This document shows, in pieces, positions 5,372 to 5,437 of a stretch of 64,000 bases of DNA (the stretch's first letter is position 1; each line of letters begins with the position of its first letter). The notes below the pieces were generated by a model that was not told where the DNA came from, searched no databases, and saw nothing but the letters and a program-made list of their open reading frames with translations. The position numbers and the translations under genes are program-made. This stretch comes from Escherichia coli (GTDB lineage: Bacteria > Pseudomonadota > Gammaproteobacteria > Enterobacterales > Enterobacteriaceae): the NCBI RefSeq assembly GCF_011045215.1, contig NZ_CP049201.1; one strand, written 5' to 3'.

Positions 5372-5437
5372 CCTGTCGTCAGGTGTTCTTGCAGCGTGCC
5401 ATAATCTGCAGTCGGGAGTTGAACGCCTGACGACAGG
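5372..5437 (+). other. 12-bp perfect inverted repeat (CCTGTCGTCAGG / CCTGACGACAGG) with a 42-nt spacer just downstream of tnpC
   Basis: Read directly from the sequence at 5372..5383 and 5426..5437; could be part of the IS66 right end or a structured RNA or terminator. Confidence 0.5.

Follow-up and report, generated by a model that had tools for sequence, protein, structure and literature searches.

The inverted repeat that begins just past the transposase gene tnpC in the window (the whole stretch of 64,000 nucleotides of Escherichia coli DNA analyzed here) is, in our reading, the first, hairpin-forming unit of a 33-bp repeat array, which the original prediction of this repeat had overlooked. 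We give a probability of about 40% to what we consider the best reading of its role, namely that the inverted repeat and the array would provide the 3' end of the tnpC mRNA with a protective stem-loop lacking a U-tract and, beyond it, with a zone for Rho loading.

The IS66-family host element

Elements of the IS66 family abound on virulence and resistance plasmids. We assessed the identity of the host element on an intact copy of 2773 bp, L002, from the E. coli W plasmid pRK1, rather than on the defective copy of the window. The features of L002 are as follows:

1655-1681, left terminal inverted repeat, which begins GTAATGTTCCGG
1744-2073, tnpA
2060-2440, tnpB
2483-4066, tnpC
4401-4427, right terminal inverted repeat

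The two terminal repeats pair at 85% over 27 nt, the copy is flanked by an 8-bp target duplication (GTTTTCTG), and 361 bp of non-coding DNA lie 3' of tnpC. Pfam domains DDE_Tnp_IS66 (E=5e-91), zf-IS66, LZ_Tnp_IS66 and DDE_Tnp_IS66_C were detected in the product of the tnpC ORF of the window (3863-5365). The host element is an IS66-family insertion sequence, with tnpA, tnpB and tnpC, terminal repeats of the GTAA type and an 8-bp target duplication.

Positions 993-2773 of the intact element aligned to window positions 3949-5725 at 97% identity (blastn), and the following parts were located in the window:

2342-2508, + strand, left end of the element (left terminal repeat and start of tnpA), interrupted by an IS110-family insertion
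3863-5365, + strand, tnpC, encoding an IS66-family DDE transposase, 5'-chimeric here, with homology to the intact element from 3949
5699-5725, + strand, right terminal inverted repeat GTCAATATGAGTTCGCCGGAATATTAC, mapped from L002; the element ends at 5725

Since element positions 168-992 (the rest of tnpA, tnpB and the 5' part of tnpC) are missing, the copy in the window is a defective remnant. Most E. coli copies of the element are relics as well.

The surroundings of this copy are themselves composite. Two separate left-end copies, at window 77-321 and 2342-2508, are 96% identical to element positions 1-244 and 1-167 of L002, and in the near-identical locus L001 they are separated by a VENN-motif pre-toxin fragment, so that a nested or rearranged mosaic is indicated. 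An IS110-family element at 2509-3860 (ORF 2658-3677, + strand), whose ORF is labeled 'IS110 family RNA-guided transposase' in L001, sits in the IS66-like element, where it takes the place of the 3' part of tnpA, of tnpB and of the 5' part of tnpC; no Rfam match at gathering score to a bridge-type RNA was found in its flanks. To the right, from 5726 onward, the element adjoins in L001 a truncated terY and is next to terW, which makes the window part of a tellurite-resistance island.

The inverted repeat and the 33-bp array

Perfect 12-bp arms separated by 42 nt had been described just after tnpC, and the repeat search bore this out exactly: the cores CCTGTCGTCAGG (5372-5383) and CCTGACGACAGG (5426-5437) have 42 nt between them, and the 7th base past the tnpC stop is the first of the repeat (the tnpC ORF ends at 5365). 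The same search extended the arms to 17 nt, with 16/17 positions paired (94% complementary, one T.G position) around a 32-nt loop. The RNA folding check proposed with the original prediction also came out in its favor, the stem-loop being far more stable than shuffled sequences on both strands: the folding energy of the 80-nt segment was -37.3 kcal/mol for the + strand (z=-5.1) and -31.3 kcal/mol for the - strand (z=-5.4), with 0 of 200 shuffles as good in each case.

Perfect 12-mer inverted repeats with spacers of 3-60 nt occur at five loci in the 64-kb window, against 0.2 matches expected from dinucleotide shuffles of the window; 16% of these shuffles hold at least one such repeat, so that a bare 12-mer repeat is only mildly unlikely. 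What takes the repeat studied here beyond chance is its 16/17 extension, its fold energy and, above all, its conservation in hundreds of diverged copies; megablast detected DNA similar to the region in 904 E. coli records, and blastn in 3062. Four other perfect inverted repeats of at least 12 bp with short spacers lie at window positions 7934-7966, 11477-11543, 17968-18009 and 39875-39905.

The repeat had also been proposed as part of the IS66 right-end architecture. This holds insofar as it belongs to the right-hand part of the element in this lineage, but not in the sense of a terminal inverted repeat, which was ruled out: the true terminal repeat at 5699-5725 corresponds to the terminus that in L002 is bounded by the 8-bp direct repeat, and the inverted repeat lies 288 bp inside it.

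Around and beyond the inverted repeat, the spacer between tnpC and the right end contains a series of directly repeated units with a 21-bp core, GTCAGTACTTC-N4-CCTGAC, in which 17 bases are specified. Position-weight matrix scoring gave the bit scores in the following list of features:

5372-5388, + strand, left arm CCTGTCGTCAGGTGTTC, which copies part of the 3' half of the repeat unit in inverted orientation
5411-5431, + strand, first direct unit GTCGGGAGTTGAACGCCTGAC, 16.8 bits, at element position 2458
5421-5437, + strand, right arm GAACGCCTGACGACAGG, which includes the terminal CCTGAC of the first direct unit
5462-5496, + strand, second, smaller hairpin inside the array, CGGGCTGAC ... GTCAGCCCG, with 9-bp arms and a 17-nt loop, kept in diverged copies
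5480-5680, + strand, C-rich, G-poor zone, GC skew to -0.44, of rut-like composition in the tnpC-sense RNA
5510-5530, + strand, degenerate-core unit GGCTGCACTTCATCACCTGCC, 21.5 bits in L002, at element position 2557 and in the 33-bp register
5543-5563, + strand, canonical-core unit GTCAGTACTTCGCGACCTGAC, 30.8 bits, the sole exact match to the pattern in 64 kb
5576-5596, + strand, degenerate-core unit CTCAGTCCTTCAGAACCCGCC, 16.3 bits, 33 bp past the canonical unit

Each element carries 2-4 scoring copies, all of them in + orientation and all in the spacer between tnpC and the right end, with starts 33 bp apart (34 bp in Pantoea). The GTCAGG of the left arm (window 5378, element position 2425) precedes the first direct unit at 2458 by 33 bp and is therefore in the register of the array, and the distance from 2458 to the next scoring unit at 2557 is 99 bp, that is, three periods. 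The hairpin is thus read as the tnpC-proximal unit or units together with an inverted partial copy, which would give it the long stem.

Base autocorrelation, used as a motif-free test of periodicity, peaked at lag 33 in L002 (z 4.5), in the Serratia element L213 (4.6, with 3.8 at lag 66), in the Enterobacter element L215 (3.6) and in the Salmonella element L212 (2.5); in the remaining elements lag 34 was raised (z 2.0-2.2) but was the top lag in none. Tandem Repeats Finder found nothing in the array, which is too degenerate for it, and periodicity was therefore established with the position-weight matrix and autocorrelation. Outside the 3' spacer no unit match of at least 10 bits was found save a weak one of 11.5 bits in L212. 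Nor did local alignment against shuffles reveal significant similarity between the unit and the terminal inverted repeats (p=0.25-1.0), and the idea that the units are degenerate copies of the terminal repeat ('pseudo-ends') was dropped, the alignment being no better than with shuffles.

The composition of the spacer is also distinctive. In the window the 3' region has an overall GC skew of -0.15, falling to -0.44 at 5520-5599, with the trough 110-300 nt beyond the hairpin; across the clade described below, skew in this region was -0.13 to -0.27 in 9/9 members vs +0.02 to +0.06 in tnpC.

Two further observations concern the right end. In L006, which comes from E. coli O157:H7 86-24, the right end of the element has its final 150 bp duplicated in tandem (L006 3887-4037); the junction lies after a complete right terminal repeat, and the duplicated segment starts exactly at the repeat unit CTCAGTTCTTCAGAACC. 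A GATC (Dam) site lies at window 5659-5662, within CTGCGATCATTCG, and most members of the clade have a GATC about 45-65 bp from the right end, as GCGATC in E. coli, Salmonella and Klebsiella and as ACGATC in Pantoea, which recalls the Dam-regulated ends of IS10 and IS50.

Conservation of the unit and of the hairpin among relatives

A protein search retrieved relatives of TnpC at 45-95% identity, the named element ISEc49 among them, with hundreds of TnpC clusters at 57-90%, and loci of such relatives were compared; to ISCro1, IS679, ISEc8 and ISKpn24, TnpC is about 33% identical. The array-bearing elements form a monophyletic, ISEc49-like clade found in eight enterobacterial genera, from which it follows that the array was gained once and retained. 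The distance from the tnpC stop to the right terminal repeat sets this clade apart:

Array clade (E. coli W type, ISEc49, Salmonella, Serratia, Enterobacter, Citrobacter, Klebsiella, Cedecea, Pantoea), 223-364 bp
Outgroups (Yersinia, a second Salmonella element, Cedecea, Photorhabdus), 30-60 bp

Absence from other copies of the insertion sequence, together with a lack of transcript 3' ends, had been named in advance as the result that would speak against the repeat, which is in fact present in other copies and in relatives from other genera. Every homologue retrieved was joined to tnpC or was a relic of the right end of the element; a dispersed palindrome of the REP or MITE type was rejected, no homologue being independent of the host element. 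When genome contigs were scanned with TnpC, a single close copy was found, all other relatives being at most 37% identical, which was of no help for the 3' region. Metagenome contigs scanned with AAAATAAATCRACCAT gave real matches at L091, L139 and L180 alone, nearly all others being chance matches because this pattern is too AT-rich.

The unit sequence is conserved at divergences at which tnpC synonymous sites are saturated. The canonical core at 5543-5563 is identical in Serratia, and 31/33 positions agree across the 33-nt unit. Over the whole 3' region L002 and the Serratia element L213 are 72% identical vs 47% at tnpC third-codon positions, a comparison that is confounded since the last 45 codons and the 3' segment were recently exchanged: third-position identity in those codons is 75-85% between L002 and both L213 and ISEc49 (L211). 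We observed in these three elements a recombination breakpoint near tnpC codon 480, beyond which the C-terminal end and the 3' spacer are far more alike than the rest; ISEc49 and Salmonella L212 share 84% TnpC identity, yet have different post-stop sequences. The argument for purifying selection was therefore based on the Enterobacter, Pantoea, Salmonella and Klebsiella elements (L215, L221, L212, L218) rather than on L213. In these four comparisons with L002 third-position identity is 0.39-0.58 with no signal of recent exchange, and the spacers are otherwise unalignable, while hardly any of the 17 bases specified in the unit has changed. That the unit is kept where synonymous sites of tnpC are saturated indicates purifying selection on the unit sequence.

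These data bear on the view that the array is a neutral by-product, a minisatellite born by slippage in the 3' spacer of one ancestor, with the hairpin a functionless inverted duplication. Array length (223-364 bp) and unit number vary among relatives, the outgroups have no array, the E. coli copies are mostly relics, and recombination of the 3' segment between lineages (0.75-0.85, L002 vs L213 and L211) inflates apparent conservation, all of which would suit such an origin. It leaves unexplained a core that is near-identical at saturated synonymous sites in the four comparisons free of recent 3' exchange, a spacing that is kept, and strong hairpins that arose independently at the same position, and we regard it as unlikely.

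The hairpin itself was found in several forms. In Enterobacter the equivalent consists of one unit, GTCAGGTG-TTGCG-CGCCTGAC, the two ends of which pair with each other around a 5-nt loop, and the next unit lies 99 bp further on; the hairpins of E. coli and Serratia correspond to the Enterobacter arms with exactly one more 33-nt period in the loop. Salmonella L212 has at the same place a different perfect palindrome of 12+12 nt (24 nt), GTAAGTCCTGAC|GTCAGGACTTAC, which arose through inversion of the first unit's 5' half, not its 3' half. Pantoea keeps a bulged version of the hairpin. In a sub-clade of Klebsiella and Cedecea the units are present and the strong hairpin is absent, and the hairpin is therefore not indispensable.

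Pair counting over 13 distinct variants showed 87% of cells paired. Changes on both sides were seen in one of the 21 pairs, window 5376/5433, which is T-A in the window and the E. coli W type, C-G in the ISEc49-like copies and L004, and a C.A mismatch in 7/13 variants. The covariation score over the 13 variants did not exceed that of shuffles, and wobble patterns favored no strand consistently; with covariation this weak, the alignment alone neither proves nor disproves an RNA structure. Two evidently mobile lineages each have a perfect 12-bp stem and differ by the compensated pair, and the ISEc49-like copies occupy at least four insertion sites in viral contigs. Taken together, the variable loop, the alternative palindrome of Salmonella and the two compensated mobile lineages favor selection for the hairpin as such, as judged from these alignments.

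Candidate functions of the module and known systems

The repeat had also been proposed as a terminator-like or regulatory RNA structure. As an intrinsic, Rho-independent terminator of tnpC, for which the stable, GC-rich stem directly past the stop codon would speak, this fails: the stem is followed by AAATGAGCC on the + strand and TATCACTCA on the - strand, so that there is no T-run on either strand and no U-tract in the RNA, the loop has 32 nt instead of the compact ~3-8 nt, and a terminator scan found no site there. We consider an intrinsic terminator extremely improbable. A terminator-like or regulatory RNA role plausibly survives solely in the Rho-dependent sense.

In E. coli, Rho-dependent transcripts have stable stem-loops without a U-tract, immediately followed by sequence enriched in C over G and by rut sites, and the stem-loop shields the RNA from PNPase and RNase II (PMC6061677). 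Both traits were found here, a stable U-less stem-loop at the end of the transcribed unit and, downstream, an untranslated RNA rich in C and poor in G, and it is because a U-less stem-loop after a gene followed by C-over-G sequence fits this architecture that we rank the Rho-dependent reading first. In the tnpC transcript the inverted repeat would fold, directly past the stop, into a very stable stem-loop with no U-tract; Rho would load on the untranslated C-rich, G-poor array downstream and terminate transcription, and 3'-to-5' exonucleases would then trim the RNA back to the hairpin. The expected outcome would be a tnpC mRNA with a defined, protected 3' end, and reduced read-through beyond the element. 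A sequence-specific candidate binder, encoded by the element or by the host, probably also uses the array as a second layer. The latter is called for because rut function needs no specific sequence, and the Rho-dependent reading thus leaves the conservation of the unit and its exact 33-bp spacing unexplained.

Term-seq data from K-12 contain no reported 3' end at the hairpin relic of MG1655 (about 4501586-4501651), the nearest + strand ends being at 4501955 and 4502006, 300-350 nt downstream (PMC7815308 supplement). This is weak evidence, since the relic has two stem mismatches and a 77-bp deletion and is joined to no intact gene.

A structured 3' region could instead belong to a separate non-coding RNA, transcribed in the sense or antisense direction relative to the tnpC 3' end, of which the hairpin would be one domain. 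The fold of the full 360 nt is somewhat more stable than those of shuffles (z -2.8 and -2.7 on the two strands), several K-12 and O157-type substitutions preserve G.U pairs on the minus strand only, and the loop contains an extended -10-like promoter at 5376-5405 (+). Against these stand the weak covariation, the failure to find a minus-strand promoter, a -10 that reads CATAAC in most variants and is not conserved, and a search of Rfam 15 that gave no hit overlapping 5366-5498 even at E<=10. Such an RNA is in our view quite unlikely. The sole Rfam match of the 3' region was a sub-threshold one to sR38 at 5499-5559 (-), with 15.8 bits vs a gathering score of 50, and no match at gathering score was found in the whole window. 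The promoter-like site at 5376-5405 (+) has the form TCGTCA-18-CATAAT with an upstream TG and faces outward from within the hairpin; an outward promoter was dropped as a general feature, the site being limited to the window and the E. coli W variant.

Open reading frames also run through the region, and the inverted repeat would be incidental if one of them encoded a small protein. The frames are as follows:

5379-5522, - strand, 47-aa 'hypothetical protein' annotated by PGAP in other copies (WP_000877738.1), with no Pfam or NCBIfam match
5370-5708, + strand, open frame of 113 codons
minus strand, ORF of 193 aa

The long open frames on both strands of E. coli variants, the annotation by PGAP of the 47-aa ORF and a 33-nt period equal to 11 codons speak for coding. 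We nevertheless hold it to be highly improbable: no Pfam or NCBIfam match was found, the + frame has no start codon before 5541, stops occur in all six frames in seven members (Serratia, Enterobacter, Citrobacter, Klebsiella, Cedecea, Pantoea and Salmonella), and the E. coli variants are distinguished by frame-shifting indels. These stops and indels show the region to be non-coding. The 47-aa ORF is probably not a gene, and its annotation in many RefSeq genomes is probably spurious.

The most serious competitor of the Rho-dependent reading acts at the DNA level. The 33-bp units, including the hairpin-forming inverted pair, may be phased double-stranded sites for a candidate binder, such as the N-terminal DNA-binding modules of TnpC, the small helix-turn-helix-like TnpA or a host factor, and could serve as an accessory site specific to the right end or as a transpositional enhancer (compare the subterminal sites of Tn7 and the internal enhancer of Mu). 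The core is conserved as sequence, its TACTTC 'loop' included, with substitutions that are one-sided and not compensated, and it persists at saturating divergence; the units have the same orientation throughout and are restricted to the spacer between tnpC and the right end; lag 33 is the top autocorrelation lag, with z up to 4.6; and the array was gained once and has been retained since by a monophyletic group. The 33-bp period is divisible by 11, a property shared with plasmid iterons, which we also count for this reading. Conservation of the exact unit sequence with fixed spacing points to a sequence-specific binder, on DNA or on RNA. This binder would not simply recognize the terminal repeats, since the unit is unrelated to them, without significant similarity, and the left end, like the rest of the element, lacks units. 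Close outgroups transpose without the array, with spacers of 30-60 bp and intact terminal repeats, so that the core transposition machinery does not include it. A 33-bp change in arm spacing, or the swapped inverted half, fits a fixed dimer site poorly and a hairpin easily, and the binder is hypothetical. We treat a role of the units as binding sites in DNA as a tentative alternative.

The Rho-dependent and the binder readings are not mutually exclusive. It is conceivable, though a speculative step, that array and hairpin make up a dedicated cis module for candidate TnpA/TnpB or TnpC, acting on the DNA or on the nascent 3' UTR, by which this clade would control transposition at its right end or achieve cis-preference. 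No clear clade-specific features marking a binder were found in TnpA, TnpB or TnpC. To our knowledge, the mechanism of IS66 elements is poorly understood, and the roles of, and need for, TnpA and TnpB have no explanation. A clade-specific, sequence-conserved, non-coding module at the right end would give a concrete handle on this mechanism, one able to separate an RNA-level insulator or stabilizer from a protein-binding platform, and the cis module, if real, would be the first defined regulatory site of the IS66 family.

Our literature search, ISfinder being outside its scope, turned up no earlier account of the present 3' region, nor any of subterminal repeats in IS66 elements. The array clade shares with canonical IS66, IS679, ISEc8, ISCro1 and IS682 the order tnpA-tnpB-tnpC, terminal repeats starting with GTAA and an 8-bp target duplication; in canonical members and in the outgroups tnpC is separated from the right terminal repeat by tens of bp (e.g., the IS682 copy in L006), vs the 223-364 bp of the array clade.

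Compared with the Rho-dependent transcripts of E. coli (PMC6061677), the 3' region described here likewise has a very stable stem-loop straight after the coding sequence, no U-tract and C-over-G composition downstream. It differs in its unusually long 17-bp stem and 32-nt loop, in being known from sequence alone, and in that the C-rich region is a sequence-conserved 33-bp tandem array inside a mobile element.

As for subterminal repeats, multiple copies in the same orientation were found adjacent to one end, whereas related sites at both ends or within the terminal repeat were not. By sequence arrangement alone, the array resembles the TnsB sites of Tn7, the MuA sites and enhancer of Mu and the multiple terminal repeats of IS21 in having direct, sequence-conserved copies of about 21 bp at regular spacing near one end; unlike them, it is confined to the right end, unrelated to the terminal repeat and missing from close relatives that look functional. 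As an object the hairpin is of a common type, and it is the phased, right-end-only, sequence-conserved array around it that is a new variant.
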